From Candidatus Zambryskiibacteriota bacterium (GTDB lineage: Bacteria; Patescibacteriota; Minisyncoccia; Phycocordibacterales; DATDWN01): a DNA stretch of 64,000 nt. Of this stretch, positions 2,941-64,000 are shown in pieces (the first letter of the stretch is position 1; every line of letters starts with the position of its first letter). A model generated the notes under the pieces. That model made no database searches. It was not told the DNA's origin and saw only the letters and a list, made by a program, of their open reading frames with translations. Where the stretch lies: assembly GCA_023267045.1 (NCBI GenBank), contig JAHFOB010000001.1, forward strand, positions 9,593 through 73,592. Direction: 5' to 3'. Made by a program: the position numbers and the translations under genes.

Positions 2941-4056
2941 ATGAAAGTACTTTCTATAAGCACAGACAGAAAATTGTTTGAAGAAGGAAGCGCTGTTTTA
3001 GAGCGTTCAAAAGATTATGCTTCCAAAATGGAGAAATTGCACATAATAGTTTTTTCCTTAAAAAGTCATAATTTAAAATTTAAAGAAGAAGGGAATTTGT
3101 ACATTTATCCAACAAATTCTTTGTCGAGATGGTTTTATGTGATGGATGCAGTGAAAATAGGAAAAAGTATTTTAAATAAAAGTTTTGTTATTTCCACCCA
3201 AGATCCATTTGAGACTGGTTTAGTCGGCTATAAACTTAAGAAAAAGTTTAATCTGCCACTCCAAATCCAAATACACACTGATTTCCTAAGTCCATATTTC
3301 AGAAATTCTTTCTTGAATTATATTCGTGTTTTTATTTCAAAATTTACTATTCCAAAAGCAGATTATGTTCGTGTTGTCAGTTCTTCAGTAGAAGATTCTC
3401 TAAGAAAAATCTCAACAAAAGTGAAAATTCAGATTTTGCCAGTTTTTGTTGATATTCCAAGAATAATGAATTTTCAACCAAAAAAAGATATAAAAAAAGA
3501 TTTTCCTCAATTTAAATTTAGTATTTTTATGGCTTCCCGGTTGACCAAAGAAAAGAGAATAGACACTGCACTCAAGGCTTTTAGAAAAGTAGTCGATGTC
3601 CACACAGAAGCTGGTTTGATTATTTCTGGATCAGGAAAAGAGGAAGGTAATCTAAAAAGTTTGGTAAAATCTCTAGGGCTTACAAAAAATGTTATTTTCA
3701 CTGGTTGGAATGATGGTTTGATTTCATATTATAAAACAGCAGATATTTTTCTACTTACTTCACAGTACGAGGGTTATGGTATGACTCTTGTGGAGGCTGG
3801 AGCATCGGGCTGTCCTATTGTTACGACAAAAGTTGGTCTGGCAAAAACAGATCTTTTTAAAAACGGAGCAAACTCTTTTGTCTGTTCAGTTTGGGATGTA
3901 AATTGTTTATCAGAATCTATTTTAAAACTTATTTCTAATCCCAATTTAAGACTATTGTTCAAAACAAAAATGCAGGATAGTATTAGAAATACAACTATTT
4001 CAAAAGAAGAATATGTGACAAAGTATGTCAGTTTGCTTCAGGATTTATTAAAATAA
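2941..4056 (+). CDS. Glycosyltransferase family 4
   Basis: Carries the E-x7-E motif EGYGMTLVEAGASGCPIVTT. The track start at 2923 adds MKNSNG, which is encoded by the element's right repeat; 2941 is the ATG contiguous with the gene body. Confidence 0.7.
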   Translation: MKVLSISTDRKLFEEGSAVLERSKDYASKMEKLHIIVFSLKSHNLKFKEEGNLYIYPTNSLSRWFYVMDAVKIGKSILNKSFVISTQDPFETGLVGYKLKKKFNLPLQIQIHTDFLSPYFRNSFLNYIRVFISKFTIPKADYVRVVSSSVEDSLRKISTKVKIQILPVFVDIPRIMNFQPKKDIKKDFPQFKFSIFMASRLTKEKRIDTALKAFRKVVDVHTEAGLIISGSGKEEGNLKSLVKSLGLTKNVIFTGWNDGLISYYKTADIFLLTSQYEGYGMTLVEAGASGCPIVTTKVGLAKTDLFKNGANSFVCSVWDVNCLSESILKLISNPNLRLLFKTKMQDSIRNTTISKEEYVTKYVSLLQDLLK

Positions 4057-4068
4057 CTCTGTAAATAC

Positions 4069-4917
4069 ATGAAAATAGGATTTATTGGAACTGGCTGGAT
4101 CGGTAAAAATTACGCTTTAGATTTCACAGAAAGAGGCTACGATGTTACTTCATACAGTCTTGAACCAGAATACAAAAAAAATAAAGATAAAATTTCAAAA
4201 TGTGATATTGTTTTTATTGCAGTACCAACGCCAACAACGCCAAAAGGCTTTGATGACTCAATAATAAGATCTGTTCTAGGGTTGGTCGGAAAAGGTAAAA
4301 TAGCTGTTTTGAAATCTACAATCGTCCCTGGGAAAACGAAGGAATTACAAAAAAAATTCCCAAACATAACACTCCTTTATTCTCCAGAGTTTTTGTCTGA
4401 AGCTACAGCAAAATTTGACACAAGTAATCCTTTTTCAAGTATTGTCGGGTTTTCAAAAGAAACAAAAATCCAAAAAGAAGCCTGTCAGAAAGTATTATCT
4501 ATTTTACCAAAAGCTCCTTTTTCTCTGGTATCTTCAAGTACAGAGGCAGAGATTATAAAATACACGCACAATACCAGTGGTTTTGTGCAGATCATTTTCT
4601 TTAACATGATCTATGATTTGTCTAGAAAACTTGGTTGCAACTGGAAAACTATCCACAAAGCTATAATAGCTGATCCTTTTATGTCTCATAAATATGCACA
4701 ACCTATTCATAAAAGTGGTCGTGGCGCAGGCGGGCATTGTTTCATAAAAGATTTTGAGGCTTTTCACAGACTCTACGAAAAACTTTTCTCAAATGATAAA
4801 TCCGGTTCAGCTATTTTCAGAGAAAATATAAAAAAGAACATTGAACTTTTGACAAGAACTAAGAAAGACCTGGGGCTTCTGCGCGGTGTTTATGGAGATG
4901 ATATAATTAAAAAATGA
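4069..4917 (+). CDS. Nucleotide-sugar dehydrogenase family protein (UDP-glucose/GDP-mannose dehydrogenase-like), short form
   Basis: N-terminal Rossmann signature MKIGFIGTGWIGK, the FIAVPTP motif, STIVPGKT, PEFLSEATAKFD and a catalytic-Cys-like GRGAGGHCFIKD. At 282 aa it lacks the usual C-terminal UDP-binding domain. Confidence 0.5.
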   Translation: MKIGFIGTGWIGKNYALDFTERGYDVTSYSLEPEYKKNKDKISKCDIVFIAVPTPTTPKGFDDSIIRSVLGLVGKGKIAVLKSTIVPGKTKELQKKFPNITLLYSPEFLSEATAKFDTSNPFSSIVGFSKETKIQKEACQKVLSILPKAPFSLVSSSTEAEIIKYTHNTSGFVQIIFFNMIYDLSRKLGCNWKTIHKAIIADPFMSHKYAQPIHKSGRGAGGHCFIKDFEAFHRLYEKLFSNDKSGSAIFRENIKKNIELLTRTKKDLGLLRGVYGDDIIKK

Positions 4918-51963: not shown

Positions 51964-52009
<46 letters not shown>

Positions 52010-52013
52010 ACTC

Positions 52014-52397
52014 ATGATGCTTGATTTCTCACAAAAACGCAAGTTTAGAAGTCTACTATATAACTGGATAACTATAGGTATTTTGGCTATTATTGTTTTG
52101 TTTTTTTTACATTCTACCTGGTCTGTTTATAAAAAAGATAAAGAAAGTGAACAAATGAAACAGGTCTCACTCCAGAACGTAGAGGAGTTGAGGGCCAGAA
52201 ACGAGAATTTGCAGACTAAAATAGATAGACTGGCAACTCCGGAGGGTGTCGAAGAGGAGATTCGTTCAAAGTTTAGTGTGGCAAAGGAGAATGAGAATAT
52301 GGTTTTGGTTGTAGAGAGTGAGCAGAACTTAGAGCAACCAACAACAACGGAACAAGTTACATTTTGGCAAAGGATACGAAGTTTCTTTGGAAATTAA
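52014..52397 (+). CDS. FtsB/DivIC-like septum formation initiator
   Basis: N-terminal TM helix, a coiled-coil with leucine heptads (NVEELRARNENLQTKIDRLA), then a PEGVEEEIR motif typical of the FtsB/DivIC family. Confidence 0.45.
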   Translation: MMLDFSQKRKFRSLLYNWITIGILAIIVLFFLHSTWSVYKKDKESEQMKQVSLQNVEELRARNENLQTKIDRLATPEGVEEEIRSKFSVAKENENMVLVVESEQNLEQPTTTEQVTFWQRIRSFFGN

Positions 52398-52474
52398 AAA
52401 TTAAAAATTGAAAAATTCTAGTTGATATATATTATGTAGTAGTATATACTTCCAGAAATAACCATAATAAAAAG

Positions 52475-52732
52475 ATGAAGAAAGTCACGATATACTCAAC
52501 ACCTGTTTGCCACTACTGTGCAATGGCGAAAGAATACTTCAAAGCAAACGGAGTCGCATATGAAGAGTTTGACGTTGCAAGTAATGCCGACAAAAGAAAA
52601 GAAATGATGGAAAAGTCAGGTCAGCTTGGCGTACCTGTAATACTAATTGACGATAGTGTTGTGGTCGGTTTCAATAGGCCTAAACTAGCTCAACTTCTAA
52701 ATATTGGCCAACCCGCTCCACAGACAGCGTAA
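52475..52732 (+). CDS. Glutaredoxin-family protein
   Basis: KVTIYSTPVCHYCAMAKEYF with CxxC, and GVPVI toward the C-terminus. 85 aa. Confidence 0.6.
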   Translation: MKKVTIYSTPVCHYCAMAKEYFKANGVAYEEFDVASNADKRKEMMEKSGQLGVPVILIDDSVVVGFNRPKLAQLLNIGQPAPQTA

Positions 52733-52808
52733 ATCTCACGATACTAGTGGATAAAACGATACATAACTAGTATTGTTTTGGTTTATCCAAATAGTGTATA
52801 ATTGATTA

Positions 52809-53432
52809 ATGGGTAAAGCATTATTATTAAAATCAGAGATTGATAAAATAAAAAAGCTAAGAGAAACAGGGCATTCTCTGAATGAGATAAAAAGCGTTGT
52901 TAATCGAGGATATGGAACAGTGTATCGTTATATGAAAAATGTTCCTGTCATCTCAAAGTACCAAGATATTTTAAAATCTAAACAAGGTGGTAGTAGTGCG
53001 AGATCTCAAAAAAATTGGAACAATGCTAGAAAAAATGCCAGTAAAATTATAAATGATCTTAATTTCAAAGAAAAGATGGTAGCACTTTCTTGTCTTTATT
53101 GGGGTGAGGGTAATAAGACAGAATTAAGTTTAATTAATAGTGATCCTAGTTTGCTTAAAGTTTTTCTGTCATGTTTAAGAGAGTTGGGTATTAAAGAAAG
53201 TGATTTGAAAATAAGTTTGAGATTATTTGAAGATATAGATAGAAATAAAGCAACAGATTTTTGGTTGAAAATTCTACATCTACCAAACGGGAGTATTACA
53301 AAATATGACATAAAAAAAGGAAGTAAATCGGGAAAACTTAAATACGGTATGTGTAGAATAAGAGTGAAAAAATCTGACAAATATTTCAAATTGATTATGA
53401 GTATGATAGATTTAATTAAATTAAAGGTTTAA
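52809..53432 (+). CDS. HTH-containing DNA-binding protein with a single LAGLIDADG-like motif (putative free-standing homing-endonuclease-like)
   Basis: N-terminal HTH-like IKKLRETGHSLNEIKSVV. ALSCLYWGEGNKT resembles a degenerate LAGLIDADG helix, followed by a basic beta-rich region. Confidence 0.3.
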   Translation: MGKALLLKSEIDKIKKLRETGHSLNEIKSVVNRGYGTVYRYMKNVPVISKYQDILKSKQGGSSARSQKNWNNARKNASKIINDLNFKEKMVALSCLYWGEGNKTELSLINSDPSLLKVFLSCLRELGIKESDLKISLRLFEDIDRNKATDFWLKILHLPNGSITKYDIKKGSKSGKLKYGMCRIRVKKSDKYFKLIMSMIDLIKLKV

Positions 53433-53435
53433 AAT

Positions 53436-53507
53436 GCCGTCGTAGTTAAATGGATATAACTCCTTCGTCCTAAGAAGGAATTGACCGTTCGATTCGGTCC
53501 GATGGCA
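53436..53507 (+). tRNA. tRNA-Arg (anticodon CCT)
   Basis: Manual fold: acceptor GCCGTCG/CGATGGC, D-stem GTTA/TAAC, anticodon stem CCTTC/GAAGG with loop GTCCTAA, T-stem GACCG/CGGTC with loop TTCGATT, discriminator A. CCA is not encoded. Confidence 0.75.
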
Positions 53508-53537
53508 CAAAAAAAAGAGAGCTCCACTCTCTTTTAA

Positions 53538-53752
53538 AGGGGTGCTCCCTGTCTGGTCCCTACAAGTTCTCTGTTTTGAGATACTTTGTCCTCACCACGC
53601 TCTGGATGATAACCTAGGATTAACTCATCACCCAAGGTGGAAGCCTTTGCGAGTTACGCGCCTCGTTGGCGGTCTTGGATTTTCTCTCGTCAAGAGACTT
53701 ATGAGGGATCTGATCGCGCGATCAAGATTAACCTTAAAGGAGCACCCCGTTT
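53538..53752 (+). ncRNA. Candidate ~215-nt structured RNA closed by a terminal helix GGGGUGCUCC / GGAGCACCCC. Identity unknown; it could be a 6S-like or other regulatory RNA.
   Basis: GC about 48% against a ~33% background. The 10-bp terminal helix and internal imperfect complementary strands were read directly (UCCCUACAAGUUCUCU vs AGAGACUUAUGAGGGA). The track ORFs across it are low-complexity and lack start context. Confidence 0.3.
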
Positions 53753-53819
53753 CATTCTAAGGGTCTCTAATTTTTTGTCAACTTATTTACTTTTCTTCAT
53801 ATTTTGCTACTATAATCTC

Positions 53820-54056
53820 ATGTCACCAGAGGAAAGAGAGCTCCTTAAAAGAACAGCTGATCTTGCAGAAGATAACAATAAAATGTTGCGCTCGATGCAA
53901 CGTTCTATGCGTTTACAAAGGATAATGACTCTATTTTATTGGGTTTTTATAATAGGCTCGGCCATAGGAGCGTATTATCTTATTCAGCCATATATAGATA
54001 GTATTAAAGGGGCATATGGAGGTGCTAGTAGCGGTTTCAAGGATCTTTTTAACTAA
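53820..54056 (+). CDS. Small membrane protein (78 aa) with an N-terminal coiled/charged segment and one TM helix
   Basis: MSPEERELLKRTADLAEDNNKMLRSMQRSMRLQRIMTLFYWVFIIGSAIGAYYLI. The ATG is preceded by TATAAT. The upstream part of track ORF 53637 overlaps the GC-rich structured region and is probably not translated. Confidence 0.35.
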   Translation: MSPEERELLKRTADLAEDNNKMLRSMQRSMRLQRIMTLFYWVFIIGSAIGAYYLIQPYIDSIKGAYGGASSGFKDLFN

Positions 54057-54478
54057 AATTTAAGAGTTCGCCCTTTATAATTCAAAGCTTCTTTAACAAA
54101 TTTTTCCCCAAGTTTTGTGCTATGTTCTATCATGTGACAGTTTGCACAAAGTAAAAGACATTTTTGCATCTCGGCTTTAATTGAATCCCAACTTTTATTT
54201 GCAACACCCCCGATAATGAATTCTTTCTTTGAAGAGTCTTTGTGGTGAAATTGCATTGCTGCTTGATTCCCATGCCATCCACATTTCTCACACTTTCCTC
54301 CCAATAATTTAATAGCTGCGGCTTTAGACCGAAATCTTCGAATTTTTGTATTACATGAACCACAACGATTTCTTTGTCTATTTTGGTAATCTTTAAATGG
54401 TTTATTACACAATTTGCATATTGTCATATTGGTCAGTATAACATATATGGCTCTACCAAAATCAAGAATGGGTTGCAA
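54053..54478 (-). CDS. HNH endonuclease
   Basis: Cys4 zinc site plus the HNH core: CEKCGWHGNQAAMQFHHKD...N...LLCANCHMIEH. Confidence 0.7.
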   Translation of the reverse strand: MQPILDFGRAIYVILTNMTICKLCNKPFKDYQNRQRNRCGSCNTKIRRFRSKAAAIKLLGGKCEKCGWHGNQAAMQFHHKDSSKKEFIIGGVANKSWDSIKAEMQKCLLLCANCHMIEHSTKLGEKFVKEALNYKGRTLKF

Positions 54479-54503
54479 AATAGGTATTTTTTAGTAATAT
54501 ATC

Positions 54504-54579
54504 CATACCACATGCCGAGGTAACTCAGTTAGCAGAGTGCTTCCCTGAAGAGGAAGAAGTCGCCAGTGCAACTCTGGCC
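54504..54579 (+). tRNA. tRNA-Phe (anticodon GAA)
   Basis: Manual fold: acceptor GCCGAGG/CCTCGGC, D-stem ACTC/GAGT, anticodon stem CTTCC/GGAAG with loop CTGAAGA, T-stem GCCAG/CTGGC, discriminator A, and an encoded CCA. Confidence 0.8.
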
Positions 54580-56132
54580 CTCGGCACCATAATCCGACTT
54601 TCGTCGGAAGAACCAACGGATGCGTGGGACGCGCGAAGTGCGTCCCACGGAGTTCCGCCTGAATCTGCGAGGGAATCTGTCAAAAATGAATCTGAATTTG
54701 GAGTGCAAGCACTCACGGTTTTTTCGCGGAGGAGGAGGTTCGAGCCAAAGACTTTTTTGGCAGCAACCTTTTTATTCAAAAGGTTGCTATCCAATGCAAT
54801 TTTTTCCATATTCTGGGCTTCTTTTATCCATTCTGACATCGGTTCGAGCCAATGTTTTTGCTTTTGTTCATTCCGAGATATTTCTTCTTCCAGCGACTTT
54901 TTCTCGGATAACAATTTTGCTTTTTGTTCACGATATACTTCTTTTTCTACATCTTGGTCTAAATATCCATCTAAAAGTCGCTGGAGCTTCACAGTAATAT
55001 CTTTTATACGATTTTGATTTTTTAGAACAAAAGCAGAAACAGATTGGGCGGATTCCGTTTTGTCGTTTTCTAAACGACCGAACATATATTCCGCCCAATC
55101 TTGTGGCAAAGAAACTTTTTGAAGAAGTGATGAAATTTGTTCGTCCAAGACTTCCTGGCGAATACAGGGTTCAGGACACTTAATATCTCGTCGCTTTTTG
55201 GAACAGTGATAGTAAGTGTAATAATGTTCTTTACCACTGACTTGTTTCTTCACCCTGTATTCGCCAGTGATCATCATTCCGCAAGTTCCACAGGATAACA
55301 AACCACAATATGCTTGGGGTTCATTTTTCTGTTTGTGTCTTGGACGACCTCTTTGCTTCATCACTTCTTGGACTCTATCAAAAAGTTTCTTGTCCACGAT
55401 TGGCTCAAACTTTCCTTCATAGACTTCACCAGAATATCTAAAGTGTCCATAGTAAAAAGGATTAGACAGAATAAAAGTAGCTCTGGTTCTATGGATTCTC
55501 TTTCCGTGTTTTGTTAAAAGATTGTGCTTCGCCAAAAACATACCGATAGTATTAAGAGTTTGATTACCTTGTGAATACAGTTCGAACGCTTGTCTTATAA
55601 CAGGCGCGGATTTTTTGTCCACCACGATTGTCTTTGTTCTACTATCGTTTATATATCCCACTGGTGAAAGTCCTGGATATTCTCCGCGCCTAACTTTTTG
55701 GCGAAGTCCTCTTTTGGTATTTTCGGAAAGAGAATCCACATAGTATTTACTTTGTCCGAAAGCCATGTTGAGCATGAATTTACCTTGACTCGTAGAATCA
55801 CACCAAAAAGTAGGAAACTTCAAGCTCGCAAGTTTCCCTGTGTCGAGGAGGTATATTATTTTTCCACCATCAATACTATTTCTTGCGAGACGATCCGGAT
55901 GCCAAGAGAGGATAGAATCTGCATCGCCATTTTCGATACATCTCATCATTTCGTTGAAAATAGGACGACCTGGAATCTTGGCAGATTGTTTTTCTATAAA
56001 CTCAAGGGCGATGTTCAGATTTTCTCGCTTGGCATAGTCTCGCAATTCGTTGAGCTGTGCCTCAATCGAAAGAACTTGTTTGTCCTCGACATCTGTTGAC
56101 TTGCGAGCGTATAAAAAGAATTTTTGTTCCAT
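54525..56132 (-). CDS. Large serine recombinase (resolvase/integrase family)
   Basis: N-terminal catalytic domain FFLYARKSTDVEDKQVLSIEAQ (Ser nucleophile context) ... WHPDRLARN, a recombinase domain, and Cys-rich zinc-ribbon CGTCGMMITGEYRVKK...CSKKRRDIKC. M at 56132 is the likely start. The 3' end of the ORF runs through IR-A and antisense through tRNA-Phe with no stop until 54525, so the true C-terminus is uncertain. Confidence 0.75.
   Translation of the reverse strand: MEQKFFLYARKSTDVEDKQVLSIEAQLNELRDYAKRENLNIALEFIEKQSAKIPGRPIFNEMMRCIENGDADSILSWHPDRLARNSIDGGKIIYLLDTGKLASLKFPTFWCDSTSQGKFMLNMAFGQSKYYVDSLSENTKRGLRQKVRRGEYPGLSPVGYINDSRTKTIVVDKKSAPVIRQAFELYSQGNQTLNTIGMFLAKHNLLTKHGKRIHRTRATFILSNPFYYGHFRYSGEVYEGKFEPIVDKKLFDRVQEVMKQRGRPRHKQKNEPQAYCGLLSCGTCGMMITGEYRVKKQVSGKEHYYTYYHCSKKRRDIKCPEPCIRQEVLDEQISSLLQKVSLPQDWAEYMFGRLENDKTESAQSVSAFVLKNQNRIKDITVKLQRLLDGYLDQDVEKEVYREQKAKLLSEKKSLEEEISRNEQKQKHWLEPMSEWIKEAQNMEKIALDSNLLNKKVAAKKVFGSNLLLREKTVSACTPNSDSFLTDSLADSGGTPWDALRASHASVGSSDESRIMVPRARVALATSSSSGKHSAN
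54622..54756. repeat. Inverted repeat IR-A (~135 bp, left copy) flanking the serine recombinase gene
   Basis: About 85% identical to the reverse complement of 56185-56317. It contains the hairpins CGTGGGACGC-gcgaagt-GCGTCCCACG and GAGTGC-aa-GCACTC, and ends in a T-arm-like GGAGGAGGTTCGAGCC. Confidence 0.7.
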
Positions 56133-56184
56133 ATGTTTGTAGTATAGCAAAAATTCTTTTTGTAAAGAAAAGTAAAAATTGTAT

Positions 56185-56317
56185 TGGATTCGAACCTCCT
56201 CCTCCAAAACAAATTAGTGCGCGCTTGCGCGCCAGATTCAGATTCATTTTTGGCGGATTCCATCGCAGATTCAGGCGGGAACCCTTGGGATGCACTTCGT
56301 GCGTCCCACATTATGGC
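56185..56317. repeat. Inverted repeat IR-A' (right copy, about 50 bp upstream of the recombinase start)
   Basis: Reverse complement of 54622-54756. The hairpins are conserved with compensatory changes (GCGCGC-aa-GCGCGC against GAGTGC-aa-GCACTC). Confidence 0.7.
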
Positions 56318-56334
56318 TTCTTCAAAACCGATTT

Positions 56335-56575
56335 GTTCTATTTTGGTGTGTCTTTACGACTTCGCTCGAACTTATTTCATTAAAACTGTTTAAGTGGTGA
56401 ATCTGACAATGAATTCCGTCACGGCTCGGCATCCGCTCCAGAACACGCTGGAAAGCGTGTTCTTCCGCTTCTGCCTTACCGTGTCCGCCCTCGCACCCAT
56501 CGCTTCCAATCCTAAATCTGTTTTGCGCGGGATTTCTTTTTTCGGAATGGGCGATTGGTTCTCGGGCTACTTGCC
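56335..56575. repeat. Inverted repeat IR-B (~240 bp, left copy), GC-rich, with internal hairpin GAACACGCT-ggaa-AGCGTGTTC and a terminal hairpin plus T-tract
   Basis: Near-identical to the reverse complement of 59355-59598. The identical 61-aa track ORFs (56394-56579 + and 59347-59547 -) are a consequence of this repeat. Confidence 0.75.
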
Positions 56576-56611
56576 GTGACAAAAAATTAACCAAAATGTT
56601 ATACTTAAAAC

Positions 56612-58228
56612 ATGGATGAACAAACTCCTACTATTATTCCTCCCCCGATACCCCAGGAAGAACCTCAAAAAACTAAACAGCCATTATGGTTAGCGGTCTC
56701 AATTCTGGCTGCAGTTTTTGTAGTTGTCGGTAGTTATTTTATATATCAAAAACTAACGACAAAATCACAGATTCAGAATGTAAATTTTGTAAATATTGCT
56801 ACGACCACAGATCAATTTGCAAATTGGAAAACATATACCGATGAACAGTATAAATTTGAGTTTAAATATCCAGCTACACTTGAAGTTTTTAAAGATAATA
56901 CGGCGATTATTCACATTATTCATCCCGAAGATAAGGACGTAGATTTAAGTAAAACTGGGCCAGTAGATGGCATGTGGATACATGTTGTGGATAATACAGA
57001 TAAATTATCCGTCACTGATTGGTGGAATAAATACGGACCTTATACTCCAAAAAGAAATGGTACTGGACTTAAACCCGACACTTTTCCAATTAAGAATATG
57101 AGCGTGGGTAATTTAAACGGTATTTACATTGGTGGTTCAGAGGGTGTTTTATCGAATTACCTCATTTTGCCATATATGGATAAAATCCTTGAAATTAATG
57201 TAATGACTAAAGATTTCAAGGAAATTCTCTCTACTTTAAAATTACCAGAATCATTAACAAAAGATTGGCAAACCTACAGAAACGATGAGTTTAAAATTTT
57301 TGAAATAAAATATCCTGGAGGATGGGTAATTCAACAGGAAGATCCTTACCAGCTTATTTTATCAAGTGCTCCAAAAGAACAATATTTGAAAGATGTTGGT
57401 GTCGCTCCTTCTGGAAATATGTCAATAACCGTGTCAGAGGGTGTAAATTGCTCTAGTGATGATTTCAAAAGCCTTCTCGGTTTTACGAAGTCAAACATTT
57501 CAGTTAAAAGAGTTTGTGTTGATGGATTTCAGATCTCAGCAGTTATTTGGAATGATGATACGCAAATAATTTCTCATAAAGAACTACTGAATGAAATTAT
57601 TTCCACATTTAAATTTATTGAGAAAAAACGACTTAGTAAAGAAGAACTAGCAAACAGAATATTACTAACTTCAGAAAATATTCCTACTTACGCAAAATAT
57701 AATGAACCATATAAAAGCGGGAGTTTACCCTCAGCATGTACTGAAAAATTTAATTATGACGAGCCAAATAGTACAACTACTTATTCTAATACAAAATGGG
57801 GCATATCGTTTGGAGTTCCATATAATGTAAATTGGGGAAATAGTAAGTACAGAATAGATCCGTATGAAGAAATTGAGGTAAATAATAAATATAACAACGA
57901 TGTCTTATCTGCTATTTCATGGGGTTATATTAGTGGTGGTGAGGGATGTTCATGGGGAAGACAATATTTTGTTGATATTAAATCAAAAAAATCAGCGGAG
58001 GATCTTATGACATCAATGAAACCGGATAATCTTCCTTACGATATATTTCATGCTAAAATCGAGACAATAAATAACTTACAGGTTGTAAAATATAGTACTG
58101 CCGATATGTGTGCATATTACTATATAGTAGTTATTGGTAAAAAATATAATTATGAATTCACATCTTCATGTAATGGAAGTTTTGATGACGTTGAACCGGT
58201 AGTTAAAACAGTAAAACTACTTGATTAA
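56612..58228 (+). CDS. Secreted or membrane-anchored protein of unknown function (N-terminal TM/signal anchor, Pro-rich linker, ~480-aa extracytoplasmic domain)
   Basis: KQPLWLAVSILAAVFVVVGSYFIY anchor. No recognisable catalytic motif. Enclosed between the IR-B copies. Confidence 0.4.
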   Translation: MDEQTPTIIPPPIPQEEPQKTKQPLWLAVSILAAVFVVVGSYFIYQKLTTKSQIQNVNFVNIATTTDQFANWKTYTDEQYKFEFKYPATLEVFKDNTAIIHIIHPEDKDVDLSKTGPVDGMWIHVVDNTDKLSVTDWWNKYGPYTPKRNGTGLKPDTFPIKNMSVGNLNGIYIGGSEGVLSNYLILPYMDKILEINVMTKDFKEILSTLKLPESLTKDWQTYRNDEFKIFEIKYPGGWVIQQEDPYQLILSSAPKEQYLKDVGVAPSGNMSITVSEGVNCSSDDFKSLLGFTKSNISVKRVCVDGFQISAVIWNDDTQIISHKELLNEIISTFKFIEKKRLSKEELANRILLTSENIPTYAKYNEPYKSGSLPSACTEKFNYDEPNSTTTYSNTKWGISFGVPYNVNWGNSKYRIDPYEEIEVNNKYNNDVLSAISWGYISGGEGCSWGRQYFVDIKSKKSAEDLMTSMKPDNLPYDIFHAKIETINNLQVVKYSTADMCAYYYIVVIGKKYNYEFTSSCNGSFDDVEPVVKTVKLLD

Positions 58229-58272
58229 TAATTTGTTGCTTAAAAATTGGTATTTGATATAATGTCAGTAAT

Positions 58273-58755
58273 ATGGCTCGCGATGTACTAAATGCACAAC
58301 AAATAGCCGAATACTTCCTCTGGAAAGCGCAAAACGAGAAAAAGGCAATTACGAATAAGAAACTGCAGAAATTACTTTACTATGCTCAAGCATGGTCTTT
58401 GGTTTTGCGTGACAAAAAACTTTTCAGTGACAAAATTGAGGCGTGGGTACATGGGCCTGCTGTTCGTGATGTATATTTTGAATACAAAAAATTTGGCTTT
58501 GGGCCAATCACAAAAACTGTAAAGGAAAATGACTTAGAAAAAATTTCTATAGATACAAAAAAATTCCTCGATCAAGTTTGGTCTGTATATGGTAAAAAAG
58601 ATGCAGCTTATTTGGAATATCTTTCTCACTCTGAAACTCCTTGGCAAAAAGCCCGCGAAGGACTTGAACCACATATTGGGTCTGAAAATGAAATTTCTCC
58701 TAAAGACATGAAGGAATTTTACAGTTCTAAACTCACAACACAGAAACATACTTAA
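58273..58755 (+). CDS. Panacea-domain (DUF4065/SocA-like) protein, a putative antitoxin-type component
   Basis: ARDVLNAQQIAEYFLWKAQ...ITNKKLQKLLYYAQAWSLVL...AWVHGPAVRDVY matches the DUF4065/Panacea core. Three nucleotides separate it from the next ORF. Confidence 0.45.
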   Translation: MARDVLNAQQIAEYFLWKAQNEKKAITNKKLQKLLYYAQAWSLVLRDKKLFSDKIEAWVHGPAVRDVYFEYKKFGFGPITKTVKENDLEKISIDTKKFLDQVWSVYGKKDAAYLEYLSHSETPWQKAREGLEPHIGSENEISPKDMKEFYSSKLTTQKHT

Positions 58756-58758
58756 ACT

Positions 58759-59187
58759 ATGACAATACCATCACCGGACGAGAAACTTCCAGAAAGTCCA
58801 ATACCATTGACCGCTGTTGAAATTCCACAACCTGAAGAACCGCCAGAAGCGAAACCTTTTCTGATATCTTTCGAAAAGTATAACGATAAGGAGTGCCAGC
58901 TAGACGGAATGGAGAGCAAAATGGCTAAAAAAGCTTTTAAAACTATTCGTGATATTGGTGTAAATATAAGAGACGAAAGCGATTTTGGTAAATATTTACC
59001 AAAATTAGAAGTTGTCCCTATAGAAAATAGTGGAGATTACAGAAAATTATACAAAGGACTAACAGATATGCCAGATGTTGAAGTGAAAGAAGCAAAAATT
59101 GATCGTCATACAGGTCGATTATTCTTTTTCTTGGTAGGTAAAATTTTTCATATTATCGCGGTAAGAGAAAGTCATTACCAAACATAA
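58759..59187 (+). CDS. Hypothetical protein with a RelE/ParE/Gp49-like C-terminal region; putative toxin partner
   Basis: C-terminal KIDRHTGRLFFFLVGKIFHIIAVRESHY resembles the RelE/ParE-superfamily C-terminal strand-helix. The Pro-rich N-terminal extension is unusual. Tightly coupled to the upstream Panacea gene. Confidence 0.25.
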   Translation: MTIPSPDEKLPESPIPLTAVEIPQPEEPPEAKPFLISFEKYNDKECQLDGMESKMAKKAFKTIRDIGVNIRDESDFGKYLPKLEVVPIENSGDYRKLYKGLTDMPDVEVKEAKIDRHTGRLFFFLVGKIFHIIAVRESHYQT

Positions 59188-59354
59188 AAAGCACAGCAGT
59201 TTACTTGTAGCCTCGGACATATTCCGTTTTGGGCGTCGTCACATAACTACAAAATGATACATTACCACTAGCGCAAAGGAATGTCTGAGGCGAATGATTA
59301 TGTTAGAGTAAAGATATAGGTAGGTAGTACAGTAGTTTGAATTCCGTCAGTTTC

Positions 59355-59598
59355 TCCCTTTAAGGAGAAACCCGCCCGAGAACCAATCGCCCATTCCGAA
59401 AAAAGAAATCCCGCGCAAAACAGATTTAGGATTGGAAGCGATGGGTGCGAGGGCGGACACGGTAAGGCAGAAGCGGAAGAACACGCTTTCCAGCGTGTTC
59501 TGGAGCGGATGCCGAGCCGTGACGGAATTCATTGTCAGATTCACCACTTAAACAGTTTTAATGAAATAAGTTCGAGCGAAGTCGTAAAGACACACCAT
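59355..59598. repeat. Inverted repeat IR-B' (right copy)
   Basis: Reverse complement of 56335-56575. The match breaks at TTCTCGGGC on both sides. Confidence 0.75.
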
Positions 59599-59663
59599 AA
59601 TCAAAAACCATCCTGAGTTTATCGAAGGATGGTTTTTTGATTGCGGTGCCAAATATGGAAGTT

Positions 59664-60140
59664 CTACCCCTTAACCTTTAGTCTTGTTTGTCTATTTTTA
59701 TCTATCTTTGGTAGACGTATTATAAGCAGTCCATGTTTTTCCACAGCATCTGCTTCATCCACTTGGACTTCGGCTGGGAGCATAATAGTTCTTGAAAATG
59801 AACCCCAGTAGAGTTCCTGGTGAAAATAGTCCTCATCTTTTACAAATCTTTCCGTCTCTCGCTTGCCTTTTATCGTAACAACATCACGAGTAATAGAAAT
59901 ATCCAAATCTTCTGGTTTTACACCAGCAACCATGCTTTTTATGACAATCTCCGAAGGTGTTTGATAGACGTCAACCGTCAATTCTCCTTCCGAAGCTTCT
60001 TCGTCAAACCAAGCTTCACCAGAAGGTGAAGTTTTGTCTTTACTAGGTAGTTTACTTACCGTAGGAGTCTCTTCTGTGTCATTTTCATCAACTCTGCTAC
60101 TACCAGTTAGCTTCTCAAAGAACGATCGGTTATCTTTCAT
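59664..60140 (-). CDS. Hsp20/alpha-crystallin family small heat-shock protein
   Basis: Alpha-crystallin domain (DVYQTPSEIVIKSMVAGVKPEDLDISITRDVVTIKGKRE...LPAEV...A..E.GLLIIRLPK). Confidence 0.8.
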   Translation of the reverse strand: MKDNRSFFEKLTGSSRVDENDTEETPTVSKLPSKDKTSPSGEAWFDEEASEGELTVDVYQTPSEIVIKSMVAGVKPEDLDISITRDVVTIKGKRETERFVKDEDYFHQELYWGSFSRTIMLPAEVQVDEADAVEKHGLLIIRLPKIDKNRQTRLKVKG

Positions 60141-60154
60141 TTTTATTTTATTTA

Positions 60155-60895
60155 TTAAATTATTTTTCTAGGTTCTGTATATTTGCTATTATCTTTGATA
60201 TGCTTTACTTTCTCAAAGAGTAACAATAGTATCACTATGCTTACCCAGACCATTCCGAATACAAAGAAAATATTTCCAGACGATTGCCTAATTATAAATA
60301 AATTGAACGTAGTATGCAACACCACTGCCATCAAAATACCGAATAAAGTGTAGAAAACTCGAGTTTTTCGATTTTTATAGTAGGACAGAGCCATACATAT
60401 ACCTATTGTGGCCGATGACATTGTGTGCAGTAGACTTGCACCGATAAATCGCAGATTGCCGTGTATTATAGTGTTAATAATCTCACCATTTTTTATTGGG
60501 TCTATTAAAAAAAGAGTGTTTTCAAATGTTACAAAACCTAGGGCTGACACAATAAGGTAGATTATGTCGTCTACGGGCTCATCTGCCAGAGCTTTGTTCC
60601 GCAAAGCTATGAACCATACAAAACCAAACTTAGCCAGCTCTTCTATCATTGCCCATAAAGTAAATGCTAGAGTTTCGTGGTCGTTTATATTATTGAAATA
60701 GTAGTAGATTTTTTCTTGAAGAGGCAAAGAAAACATAACAGCTACCATTCCGCCTAGAAATGCCAGCGTTATCATTTTTGATGGTTCATGGTGTCTATCT
60801 TCTTTGAGCCAAAACCAAAGCCAAATGAGCGCTGGGACTAGTCCAAGAATGAAAGCCAGTATAAACGGATATTCTTTTATAAAATCAAGGAACAT
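60155..60895 (-). CDS. PrsW-family (or related) intramembrane metalloprotease-like protein
   Basis: Six to seven TM helices, an EELAKF (EExxK-like) motif, and conserved His in later helices (HGNLRFIGASLLH). Confidence 0.4.
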   Translation of the reverse strand: MFLDFIKEYPFILAFILGLVPALIWLWFWLKEDRHHEPSKMITLAFLGGMVAVMFSLPLQEKIYYYFNNINDHETLAFTLWAMIEELAKFGFVWFIALRNKALADEPVDDIIYLIVSALGFVTFENTLFLIDPIKNGEIINTIIHGNLRFIGASLLHTMSSATIGICMALSYYKNRKTRVFYTLFGILMAVVLHTTFNLFIIRQSSGNIFFVFGMVWVSIVILLLLFEKVKHIKDNSKYTEPRKII

Positions 60896-60900
60896 ATTTT

Positions 60901-63033
60901 TTACTTAGGCCACATCGATATCATAAGCATCTCTTTTTCTTTGCCAGGAAGGTTTTGCCAGATTTCTTCTGTTATAAAAGGCATGAACGGGTGTAGTATC
61001 GTAAGGCAAGTTTCCAGAATATGAGTCAATGTATATTGTATCGATGAAACCACTTCAGGATCTTCACTTTTTAATTTTTCTTTTGATTGTTCTATTATTT
61101 TATCAGCAAATGTGTGCCAAACATAGTGATAAAGTTTTTCTGTAGCTAGATAAAATCTAAAGTTGTCCATATCACTTGTAACATCTTGAACTAAAAGATT
61201 TAGTTCATCGAGCGTAGTTTGGTCACTACTTTCGATTTTTCCGGGTCTTTTAGCATCCCAGTTTTCGGTATTTGATAATACAAATCTAGTTATGTTCCAA
61301 ATCTTATTAGCGAAAAGTTTATAAGCCTTAACTTTGCTTTCTTGCAGTGCTAGATCTGTTCCTGGCGTATTTCCGACAATGAGAGCCATTCGCAAAGCAT
61401 CTGTTCCGTATTTTGAAGTCAGATCGAGTGGATTTACGACATTACCTTTTGACTTACTCATTTTTTTACCTTTGGCGTCGTTTACAAGTCCATGAAGATA
61501 GACAGTATTGAAAGGTACTTTGCCAGAAAGATAGAGACCAAAAATGACCATACGTGGGACCCATTTGAAAATCAAGTCATGTCCAGTTTCCATAACGTCT
61601 GTCGGATAATACTTTTCAAAATCTTTTCCATCTGGGTAGCCGGTGACAAATAGTGGCCATTGCCCAGACGAGAACCATGTATCAAATGTGTCAGAGTCTT
61701 TTATCCAACCGTCACCTTCCGGTTTTTCTTTGCTTGCTGTAGCTTCATTTTCTTTGAGCCATGCTGGTATAGGTATACCCCAAACTATCTGACGAGAAAT
61801 ATTCCAATCTATTGTATTGTTCATCCAATATCTAAAGATTTTTTCGTAGTTATCAGGTATAAATTTCACTTCCCCTCTATCAACTGATTCCAGAGCTTTT
61901 TTTGCCAGAGGTTCCATTTTAACAAACCATTGATCTTTTATTTGAGGTTCGATTATTGTATTGCATTTGTAGCATCTTTTAACAACATTTTTATATTTGT
62001 CATCTATTTTTACAAGCAGTCCTTTTTCTTTCAATTTATCAACTATTTTTGGCCGAGCTTCTTTTATATTTATTCCAGCAAATTCTCCCGCAACAGGCAA
62101 AAGTTTCCCACGCCAGTCGATTATTTGTTCAACATCCAAGTTATATTTTTGAGCTAGCTCAAAATCCACCTGCGAATGCCATGGTGTGATAGTCATAACT
62201 CCCGTTCCAAACTCCATATCAACGACTGGGTCTTTTATGACAGTTGCTTCGATCGGGCCATTTATCCATTCGACCATCATTTTCTGTCCATGTTTATATT
62301 CGGAATATCTTTTGTCGTCTGGATGCATTACCACATATTTATCAGCAAATTTTGTTTCTGGCCTAACAGTTCCTATTTCAAATGGCCCGTATTTGAAATA
62401 ATAAAAAGGATTTATCTCTTCAACAGATTCAGTTTCAACTTCAGATAGGGAAGTCTGATGTTTTGAACACCAGTTCACAGTTCGTTTGCCTCTGTAAACT
62501 AAACCATCGTTATACATTTTTATAAACGTATCTTGAGTTTTTTTTACAATGTCTGGATCAAGTGTAAATTTTTCACGCGACCAATCACATGAAGCCCCAA
62601 GAGATCTGACTTGAGTCTCCATATTCTTTTTATTCTCTAAAGTAAAATCTAGAATTTCTTTGTATAAATCTTTTGGATCCATGCCAAATCTAGATCTCCC
62701 TTCTTTCTCAAGTTTCTTTTCATAAACAACTTGTGTTTCAAATCCAGCATGGTCTGCACCAGGAATCCAAAGACTTCTAAATCCCTGCATTCTTTTGAAA
62801 CGAGTCAGTATGTCTTCAATAGTTATAAACAAAGCATGTCCAGCATGGAGGTTGCCGTTTGCATTAGGTGGGGGCATAACTATTGTAAACGGTTCAGCTT
62901 TTGAGTTAGTGTTGTTGTCTGGACTAAAAAATCCACTGTTTTCCCACATACTGTAGATCCGATTTTCCGTATTTTCTGGTTTGTATGGGGATAAGAATAT
63001 TTCTTTCATCCCGTTAGAGTTTTTCATAATCAA
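60901..63033 (-). CDS. valS: Valyl-tRNA synthetase (compact form lacking the long C-terminal coiled-coil)
   Basis: PFTIVMPPPNANGNLHAGHA (HIGH region, with the ValRS-type PPPN context) and KMSKSKGN. The track start at 63033 includes MIMKNSNG encoded by the 99-bp element. MKEIFL at 63009 is the ATG contiguous with the gene body. Confidence 0.8.
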   Translation of the reverse strand: MIMKNSNGMKEIFLSPYKPENTENRIYSMWENSGFFSPDNNTNSKAEPFTIVMPPPNANGNLHAGHALFITIEDILTRFKRMQGFRSLWIPGADHAGFETQVVYEKKLEKEGRSRFGMDPKDLYKEILDFTLENKKNMETQVRSLGASCDWSREKFTLDPDIVKKTQDTFIKMYNDGLVYRGKRTVNWCSKHQTSLSEVETESVEEINPFYYFKYGPFEIGTVRPETKFADKYVVMHPDDKRYSEYKHGQKMMVEWINGPIEATVIKDPVVDMEFGTGVMTITPWHSQVDFELAQKYNLDVEQIIDWRGKLLPVAGEFAGINIKEARPKIVDKLKEKGLLVKIDDKYKNVVKRCYKCNTIIEPQIKDQWFVKMEPLAKKALESVDRGEVKFIPDNYEKIFRYWMNNTIDWNISRQIVWGIPIPAWLKENEATASKEKPEGDGWIKDSDTFDTWFSSGQWPLFVTGYPDGKDFEKYYPTDVMETGHDLIFKWVPRMVIFGLYLSGKVPFNTVYLHGLVNDAKGKKMSKSKGNVVNPLDLTSKYGTDALRMALIVGNTPGTDLALQESKVKAYKLFANKIWNITRFVLSNTENWDAKRPGKIESSDQTTLDELNLLVQDVTSDMDNFRFYLATEKLYHYVWHTFADKIIEQSKEKLKSEDPEVVSSIQYTLTHILETCLTILHPFMPFITEEIWQNLPGKEKEMLMISMWPK

Positions 63034-63107
63034 TTTTTAATTTTAGTCTATATTTTGCGCGATAGATAATACATATCCACATTCGTTATAAGTAAAACTC
63101 TAACGGG
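63009..63107 (-). mobile_element. 99-bp inverted-repeat element, copy 3, immediately upstream of valS, flanked by ATGAA direct repeats (minus-strand sense)
   Basis: Plus-strand arms TCCCGTTAGAGTTTTTC (63009-63025) and GTAAAACTCTAACGGG (63092-63107). TTCAT lies at 63004-63008 and again at 63108-63112. Same length as the other two copies. Confidence 0.55.
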
Positions 63108-63399
63108 ATTCATGTAATAAGATTAACATATAGACGTCGTAGTTAGTAGGTTTTGTTAAAAAAGACTATTTTCATATAAAGGACATAGCATATCGACTCT
63201 AAATCTAATGTCCTTTATAAGTCTTTTCTAAAATAAGTCGCAAAATAATGTCTTAATAGAATCTAAAGGACATCAATTTTGGCATAAAAGACAAATATTA
63301 AAATACAGCTCAGATTAGCCATATAATAAAAATCACTAAAATTTTCTAGCTATTGACGACATCGCAAAGCAAGTGTATCCTTTACGAACTAAAGTTTTT

Positions 63400-64000
63400 A
63401 TGATGAATTTTCTACGAATACAGAACAATAATTCTCTAGGCAAAAAAGGATTATTCTCTTTTATTGTTTTGACTCTACTTTTATCTACTTTTGGCGTTTT
63501 TCAAACGGCAAGAGCTACTACTGTTTCTACTTGCTTTAACCCAGACACACTAGGTAATAGTTCTAACCTAACTATTGGTCAGAGTTGGGATGATGGAGAT
63601 ATAGTAAATCTTCAAGATATACTAAACAGTCTCGGTTTTTCTATCGATACTGTAAACAATCAAACTCATTATCAAACATGGATTCCGACTACAAACAGTA
63701 CAACAATAAAAGTTAAAGCTCTTTCACACAATAGTGATTGGAAAGAAGTTTTTGGATATTTTCAAAATGGAACTTTTCACCCAATATATAAAACTACAGA
63801 TGGGACAATCGGATTTGAATCAACTCCACTTCTTAGTTCTGGAGGTCAGATTGATGTAACTATTTCTGGAACAGATATTGTTACTTTTGCAATGTATGTT
63901 TCCGACATTGATACTTTCAGATATACTCAAAATTCACTTAACAACCCAAATAGCGAATATTTTTCTGTTGTTTACAATGCAAATAATAGTAATGAAAGTT
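63400..64000 (+). CDS. Secreted protein of unknown function (5' partial within the window)
   Basis: ATG at 63400, with signal peptide MMNFLRIQNNNSLGKKGLFSFIVLTLLLSTFGVFQTARA, then a Thr/Asn/Ser-rich domain. Open to the window end. Confidence 0.4.
   Translation, partial: MMNFLRIQNNNSLGKKGLFSFIVLTLLLSTFGVFQTARATTVSTCFNPDTLGNSSNLTIGQSWDDGDIVNLQDILNSLGFSIDTVNNQTHYQTWIPTTNSTTIKVKALSHNSDWKEVFGYFQNGTFHPIYKTTDGTIGFESTPLLSSGGQIDVTISGTDIVTFAMYVSDIDTFRYTQNSLNNPNSEYFSVVYNANNSNES

Follow-up and report, generated by a model that had tools for sequence, protein, structure and literature searches.

Two adjacent genes on the + strand of a 64,000-nucleotide (nt) stretch of a Candidatus Zambryskiibacteriota genome (contig JAHFOB010000001.1; the whole stretch is called the window here), located at 58273-58755 and 58759-59187, are likely to constitute a PanA-PanT toxin-antitoxin (TA) module that works by the mechanism proposed below. 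The first gene, panA, encodes a Panacea (DUF4065) protein of 160 amino acids (aa), the presumed antitoxin, and the second, the panT candidate, encodes a 142-aa protein of an unannotated family, the presumed toxin. We favored a TA module because the two genes form a syntenic unit with a constant gene order, because they abut or overlap, because the partner has a predicted toxin-type fold with catalytic-type residues, and because the pair is located in a mobile element. The pair is the cargo of a large-serine-recombinase element of approximately 5 kb that is inserted at the CCA end of a tRNA-Phe gene.

In the proposed mechanism, panA and panT would be transcribed together from a promoter with an extended -10 element that immediately precedes panA, and their translation would be coupled across the 3-nt gap between them. 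PanA would hold PanT inactive by direct binding, on the model of the validated type II PanAT pairs, and a disordered N-terminal extension of PanT would be the likely handle for PanA. Free PanT would cleave mRNA as endonucleases of the RelE/YoeB/HigB type do, probably in association with the ribosome, with E111, R120, and H139(-Y140) as catalytic residues. As cargo, the module may penalize loss of the approximately 5-kb element (addiction), abort phage infection, or do both.

A conserved two-gene unit

The product of panA matched the Pfam family SocA_Panacea (PF13274) over the entire profile (positions 1 to 113 of 113), with an E value of 2e-20 and 74.2 bits against a gathering cutoff of 25.7, and it also matched PHROG 1281 (E value of 1.5e-49); it carries no additional N-terminal domain. 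The Panacea domain that an initial annotation, made from the letters of the sequence without database searches, had assigned to this gene was thereby confirmed. The panA stop codon (TAA, 58753-58755) is followed by a gap of 3 nt and then by the ATG of the partner gene, with both open reading frames (ORFs) on the + strand at the positions given above. The tight coupling described in the same annotation therefore held, and, as shown below, the unit is conserved in many unrelated contexts.

Both ORFs are real genes and not chance ORFs, because homologues exist and because, in comparison with locus L097, the proportion of nonsynonymous differences (pN) is well below that of synonymous differences (pS). 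Both are under purifying selection, with values of pN 0.06 and pS 0.46 for the C-terminal 64 codons of panA and of pN 0.09 and pS 0.66 for the partner gene. L097 (positions 201-617, encoding protein P0002) is the closest homologue of the partner for which DNA is at hand, with 83% identity; P0002 has a 4-residue deletion within the last strand, ahead of an invariant His. This homologue in L097 adjoins chromosomal genes (HU and RNase Y).

A putative promoter of the pair, read by eye, is located at 58236-58263 on the + strand (TTGCTT, 16 nt, TGaTATAAT, with an extended -10). A consensus promoter scan did not return this site because the -35 hexamer matches at 3 of 6 positions only. The site ends 9 nt upstream of the panA ATG and, if it serves as the promoter of the pair, the mRNA would therefore have nearly no leader. 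In both cargo transcription units of the element (56576-56611 and 58236-58272), a -10-like hexamer stands 6 to 9 nt before the ATG and there is no Shine-Dalgarno sequence, which suggests that the cargo mRNAs are leaderless or nearly so.

A Panacea gene was found directly upstream of every member of the partner family with visible context, down to approximately 25% identity between the presumed toxins, and no third gene was conserved beside the pair in these loci. At all eight genome loci the upstream ORF matched PF13274 in Pfam, with toxin identities down to 33% and unrelated flanking sequences. These loci were labeled as Vogelbacteria, Saccharibacteria (two), Kazan, Parcubacteria, Patescibacteria, an unnamed metagenome-assembled genome (MAG), and a Berkiella contig; thus, seven of the eight carried labels of the Candidate Phyla Radiation (CPR, the Patescibacteria), of an uncultured bacterium, or of a bacterium, and one was labeled Berkiella. 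The distribution of the partner family is essentially limited to CPR bacteria. The pair was carried by another recombinase element, L003, of which L004-L008 are near-identical copies, and it also occurs outside recombinase elements (L001 and L009-L016); in L001, a 278-kb MAG contig, it is flanked by a helicase gene on one side and by a small ORF on the other. PanA was also encoded upstream of the partner in L100 and on the contig of P0177, and in the distant members P0100 and P0177 the two genes overlap.

Published PanAT loci are defined by an antitoxin gene in first position, a gap of <100 nt, and conservation as a two-gene unit (PMC8832971). With the antitoxin gene first, a 3-nt gap, and no conserved third gene, the pair in the window has the properties of this definition. 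It also resembles the PanAT systems in having a small RelE/ParE-type partner within a few nucleotides of the Panacea gene, in being conserved as a unit across species, and in being mobile. Two neighboring genes could also be conserved together in another role, for example in RNA processing or regulation, with the Panacea protein as a chaperone-like companion, in which case the RelE-like protein would be harmless. This would fit with the absence of the partner from every toxin family by sequence profile and with the finding that approximately half of Panacea proteins lie outside TA-like loci (PMC8832971). However, the strict synteny, the antitoxin-first order, the overlap or near abutment, and the location in a mobile element are all as expected of a TA module, the RelE fold is found mainly in toxins among solved structures, and the catalytic-type residues of the partner are conserved, so we regard a role outside TA systems as improbable.

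Predicted fold and proposed activity of the partner

The 142-aa partner gave no match in Pfam, NCBIfam, PADLOC, or PHROG, and nothing was found for it in a viral structure library. Searches of PDB sequences (phmmer and two profile searches) returned only chance-level matches, to ribosomal proteins and Mcl-1. Thus, the Pfam check proposed for both proteins in the initial annotation gave PF13274 for the first and no match for the second. A word-indexed search retrieved 28 close relatives of the partner, and an exhaustive profile search retrieved 242 family clusters (50% identity; E value of ≤1e-3), nearly all of 135 to 170 aa and matched over their full length. In a further search of the family, none of the 62 matches had a precomputed Pfam domain, and wherever a name was given it was "hypothetical protein."

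The N-terminal extension of the partner (58759-58857, + strand; residues 1-33) contains 10 Pro and 6 Glu residues and is predicted to be disordered. The Pro/Glu-rich extension noted from the letters alone is therefore present, and it is a feature of the entire family: all 140 aligned members have an extension, with a median of 38 residues ahead of the first strand, rich in Pro, Glu, and Lys and with the conserved short motifs M-x-I-P, I15-P16, and E30. The extension is translated and constrained, because the first 33 codons showed a pN of 0.06 against a pS of 0.49 in the comparison with L097.

An AlphaFold model computed with the 140-sequence alignment had a predicted local distance difference test score (pLDDT) of 87.7 and a predicted template modeling score of 0.75, with most of the core (residues 34-142; 58858-59184, + strand) above 90 and the N terminus at 57 to 76. 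The predicted core consists of two helices packed on an antiparallel sheet, the arrangement that characterizes the RelE/ParE fold. Thus, we consider with good confidence that the partner has a RelE/ParE-like predicted fold, while homology is not demonstrable at the level of sequence. The RelE/ParE-like C terminus claimed at the outset was borne out insofar as the fold is predicted, over the whole core and not in the C terminus only, but no sequence or profile link accompanied it.

In the fold comparison, YafQ, Escherichia coli HigB, and HP0894 each scored 8.4, followed by RelE3 (8.1), Proteus vulgaris HigB (7.9), and YoeB (7.9 and 7.3), while the ParE proteins scored 6.6 or less. These values bear on whether the presumed toxin might be a ParE-type poison of DNA gyrase within a TA pair, and not an mRNA endonuclease. 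The RelE/ParE-like fold would accommodate either activity, but the RNase-type structures all outscored every ParE protein, and the family has an invariant near-C-terminal His together with conserved Arg, Glu, and Tyr residues that follow one another as in YoeB-type RNases, so a gyrase poison appears unlikely. In the 140-member alignment, H139 was invariant, and Y41, C46, Y94, E111, R120, and F122 were conserved in at least 90% of the members. The catalytic residues of YoeB are E46, R65, H83, and Y84. The conserved Glu, Arg, and C-terminal His-Tyr of the partner appear to resemble this set, which would be consistent with the mRNA endonuclease activity that we propose for PanT.

Several observations weigh against the assignment of the pair to a TA module with an RNase-type toxin. 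The fold is a predicted model, and an earlier AlphaFold model built from 23 close homologues was discarded at a pLDDT of 46.7. A Foldseek comparison with the PDB placed RelE toxins at the top, with weak E values, and no link of the partner to RelE/ParE proteins was obtained in Pfam or NCBIfam or by phmmer and hmmsearch against the PDB. The hhalign comparisons of the family with a 17-member CPR ParE_toxin family and with E. coli YoeB were not significant, with E values of approximately 0.2; in favor of the assignment, both alignments placed R120 over the conserved Arg of the RelE-type "G-x-Y-R-I-x-Y" strand. Also in its favor, weak Pfam matches to Gp49 (HigB-like) were obtained for 4 of the 140 members, with a best E value of 0.007, and Gp49 was the most frequent family among the members. 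The catalytic-type residues were placed by conservation and alignment of sequences and not on the three-dimensional model. The partner in the window ends in H-Y-Q-T and does not have the basic tail (xKxRR, for example D-K-Q-R-R) of most members; 24 of the 140 members likewise end within 4 residues of the invariant His, and the lineage without a tail is still constrained. Finally, the pair was found in none of 80 related recombinase elements, so that a role in addiction is not general for this type of element.

The manner of neutralization also has an alternative in the type VI system SocA-SocB of Caulobacter, whose antitoxin likewise carries a Panacea domain. On this model, PanA would neutralize the toxin indirectly as a protease adaptor, with the N-terminal extension serving as degron or handle. 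Among NCBIfam models, the panA product was indeed matched best by the SocA antitoxin (NF047745; E value of 4.5e-19), and the extension is family-wide, constrained, and predicted to be disordered, whereas ordinary RelE toxins have none. However, the score of 68.8 bits is far below the equivalog cutoff of 190, the partner has a predicted RelE fold and is not of the SocB type, and the PanAT pairs tested to date all form direct complexes (PMC8832971). We therefore give indirect neutralization a low probability and retain direct binding of PanT by PanA as the proposed mode. SocB is an inhibitor of the replication clamp.

PanAT systems are established, and nine pairs have been validated (PMC8832971). 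In the part of Dataset S1 of that study (Kurata 2022) that was available, the untested PanT clusters include T14, with HHpred matches to HigB-2/YoeB/ParE at 99.7%, and T28, with matches to YoeB/ParE at 89%; T14 includes two proteins from Saccharibacteria, and its partner PanA has a helix-turn-helix (HTH) domain. The partner in the window differs from T14, as described there, in having no match to a RelE/ParE profile, and PanA in the window does not have the N-terminal HTH domain of the T14 PanA. The conserved disordered extension of approximately 30 to 40 aa distinguishes the partner from both T14 and T28. With respect to the 88 published PanT clusters, the family is a candidate new one, judged by these descriptions of T14 and T28 in the dataset. 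The differences from the known mRNA endonucleases RelE, YoeB, YafQ, and HigB are larger: identities are 6 to 18% with no similarity at the profile level, the partner has both the N-terminal extension and an inserted strand-helix (residues 84-98), and its antitoxin is a Panacea protein and not RelB, YefM, DinJ, or HigA.

Thus, the principle of a Panacea protein paired with a RelE/ParE-like toxin is known, and the pair described here is a credible new family within it. The suggestion that the partner may be a new toxin variant stands in the sense of a new family but does not extend to a new principle, since RelE/ParE-like Panacea partners were already present in the work of Kurata et al. (PMC8832971). 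The distinguishing features are a toxin family that escapes every profile library, a conserved disordered extension, a strict one-to-one link with a short PanA, and an essentially CPR-limited distribution. Among antitoxin domains that neutralize unrelated toxins, Panacea is the best known, and a well-populated, strictly Panacea-linked RelE-fold family with a disordered extension could reveal how the domain recognizes its partners. The pair would also add a TA or defense module to the CPR/Patescibacteria, which have very small genomes and few known defense systems.

The element that carries the pair

The element and its target gene occupy 54514-59602 in the window and have the layout tRNA-CCA / A' - recombinase - A - core - B - cargo - B' - CCA / flank, where A, A', B, and B' are the arms of two inverted repeats. 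The tRNA-Phe(GAA) gene (54514-54589, + strand) encodes its CCA at 54587-54589, which is the left attachment (att) junction, and the element begins directly after it. The right-hand att core has its CCA at 59595-59597. The sequence CACCATAATC is repeated at 54585-54594, at the end of the tRNA-Phe gene, and at 59593-59602, at the outer end of repeat B. The location of the pair in a large-serine-recombinase element at tRNA-Phe is in agreement with the mobile segment suspected in the initial annotation.

The large serine recombinase is encoded on the - strand at 54708-56132 and has the Pfam domains Resolvase, Recombinase, and Zn_ribbon_recom; its conserved part is approximately 475 aa long. Up to residue 474 it is 43% identical to the recombinase of L003, and its best NCBIfam match was CcrB, with an E value of 1e-36. 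The frame continues for approximately 60 codons past the conserved end (54525-54707; 51-200 in L003), through arm A' and the att junction and antisense to the tRNA, to a stop at 54525. Because this frame crosses the att junction, the C-terminal tail of the recombinase would differ between the integrated and the excised states.

The outer arm of repeat A (A', 54624-54758) is 135 nt in length, overlaps the 3' end of the recombinase gene, and is 80% complementary to 56175-56309 in the inner arm. The inner arm with an inverted core occupies 56175-56349, and the core (TGGTG, 56345-56349) abuts arm B. The inner arm of repeat B (56340-56567) forms the border of the cargo on the side of the recombinase; its 228 nt are 100% complementary to the outer arm (B', 59374-59601), which ends at the right-hand att core. 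Together, 56175-56349 and arm B look like an attP-like site in inverted orientation. In L003, which has the same layout at a tRNA-Glu gene, the internal junction reads exactly as the join of both ends of the element, that is, as an inverted attP. Over the 34 nt nearest the core (54590-54623 versus 56310-56344), the two A arms of this element are identical at approximately 11 of 34 positions, the outer arm resembling the L018-type end and the inner arm the L027-type end. The comparison suggests that the element is a mosaic of two subtypes, which would explain why its A arms are only 80% identical.

Within the B repeats, the first cargo gene (56612-58228, + strand) encodes a protein of 538 aa that begins with a hydrophobic N-terminal segment and contains a PsbP_2-like stretch, and a promoter-like site precedes it at 56576-56605. 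The 228-nt repeats thus enclose both the pair and a protein with a hydrophobic N terminus, as anticipated in the description of the pair as inverted-repeat cargo accompanied by a secreted protein. All three cargo genes are also present on a 3,272-nt contig of another assembly; at its right end this contig does not align cleanly with the window, and it was not used to define the ends of the element.

Downstream of the presumed toxin gene, a GC-rich noncoding stretch (59188-59373) folds with the adjacent repeat arm. Compared with shuffled sequence, the folding of 59188-59610 gave z scores of -6.8 on the + strand and -5.6 on the - strand. The stretch is conserved between both PanAT-carrying elements (3884-4314 in L003, or 3884-4481 for 59188-59610 of the window), which amount to two independent sequences, and only a remnant of it is found downstream of the pair in L097. 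No Rfam family matched the repeat arms or the GC-rich stretch in 52000-64000 of the window (E value of ≤1) or in the homologous stretch of L003 (E value of ≤10).

Related elements in metagenomes

The recombinase has more than 516 relatives in metagenomes, of which the best 80 (L017-L096) were examined. The elements are approximately 4 to 8 kb in size and have a fixed layout at the 3' ends of many tRNA genes. Sixty-two of the related loci had an adjacent tRNA gene, and in most of them the element starts directly after the CCA; the target tRNA species include Thr, Lys, Gly, Leu, Arg, Glu, Val, His, Tyr, Asp, Ala, and Met. The A pair of repeats was present in 54 of the 59 loci where it was detectable, and the B pair was present in 16 of the 18 loci whose upstream sequence exceeded 3.5 kb. 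At each of the 42 internal junctions that were readable among the 80 loci, an inverted attP-like site (B arm - CCA - A arm) separated the recombinase gene from the cargo and, because of this internal site, the recombinase gene and the cargo are each bracketed by long inverted repeats, mostly 95 to 100% identical. The site might act as a switch for inversion, might serve the exchange of cassettes, or might stem from a circle that carries two attP sites in inverted orientation; all three were considered. A model of two distinct elements, one formed by the recombinase unit and the other by the cargo unit and each with palindromic ends, was set aside because a B-type arm adjoins the inner A arm even in two loci without a distal B'.

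Near the core, the B arm (for example, 56348-56380 in the minus-strand reading) contains a T-loop-like GTTCGR, and the span from GTTC to CCA was 28 nt in 41 of 42 elements, compared with 24 nt in 50 of 52 target tRNA genes. In serine integrases, the zinc-ribbon motif is displaced in attP relative to attB half-sites. The two spans would fit attP and attB half-sites in which one motif stands at a shifted spacing.

The cargo is variable. Recombinase modules that are 90 to 93% identical in DNA were followed by unrelated cargo and located at different tRNA genes. Among the genes carried as cargo are those of ABC transporters, small HTH-like genes that have a partner, and genes for membrane or secreted proteins. 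Since cargo differs behind near-identical modules and none of the 80 related loci carries PanAT, the pair represents one exchangeable cargo among many. Among the cargo ORFs listed for the related loci, most of which were not scanned for domains, none was identified as a phage, conjugation, or replication gene.

No empty site, circle junction, or inversion isomer was found among the related loci and the contigs with the neighboring Hsp20 gene, beyond possible assembly artifacts, and no two related loci had the cargo in opposite orientations. The independent contigs with the Hsp20 gene (L102-L104) all end inside arm B' and so contain no empty site. Contigs from short reads often end in the repeat arms or fold back on themselves, and L041 contains a perfect inverted repeat of 1,718 nt. 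The palindromic contigs L026 and L041 may be assembly artifacts or may be traces of isomers or circular forms.

The combination of Resolvase, Recombinase, and zinc-ribbon domains, the precise insertion, and the short shared core are also found with the integrases of A118, Bxb1, and phiC31 and with the Ccr recombinases of SCCmec. In contrast to those elements, the elements described here target the CCA ends of many tRNA genes, contain an extra inverted attP-like site with long inverted repeats around both segments, and are only approximately 4 to 8 kb in length. No description of this layout was found in the literature searched, which does not prove that none exists. To our reading, the element family is more unusual than the pair, and it may matter more as an apparently common vehicle for accessory genes in CPR bacteria. 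Its recombinases seem to accept the 3' ends of many tRNA genes, which is unusual for serine integrases and of possible interest for genome engineering.

A broader hypothesis, which we hold only tentatively as a whole, is that the pair is an exchangeable cassette of an abundant, apparently undescribed class of CPR elements, whose recombinase would use the CCA end of practically any tRNA gene as its insertion site, with a half-site that copies the T-loop motif 4 bp further out. The second, inverted attP-like site would then provide a layout for cassette exchange or inversion, and the extension of the partner would be an adaptor for the control of a RelE-fold RNase by Panacea.

The ends of the elements are conserved as n-A-A-T-C-A-A-A-C-T-T-T-C..., followed by a GC-rich hairpin. 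In the A' arms this hairpin is located approximately 35 nt from the CCA junction (54624-54648 in the window), and the sequence of its stem varies while the pairing is kept, with the examples GGGACGCGC/GCGCGTCCC, GGCGGCGC/GCGCCGCC, and GCCGCGC/GCGCGGC. Such covariation suggests that the hairpin is functional, either as DNA or as RNA.

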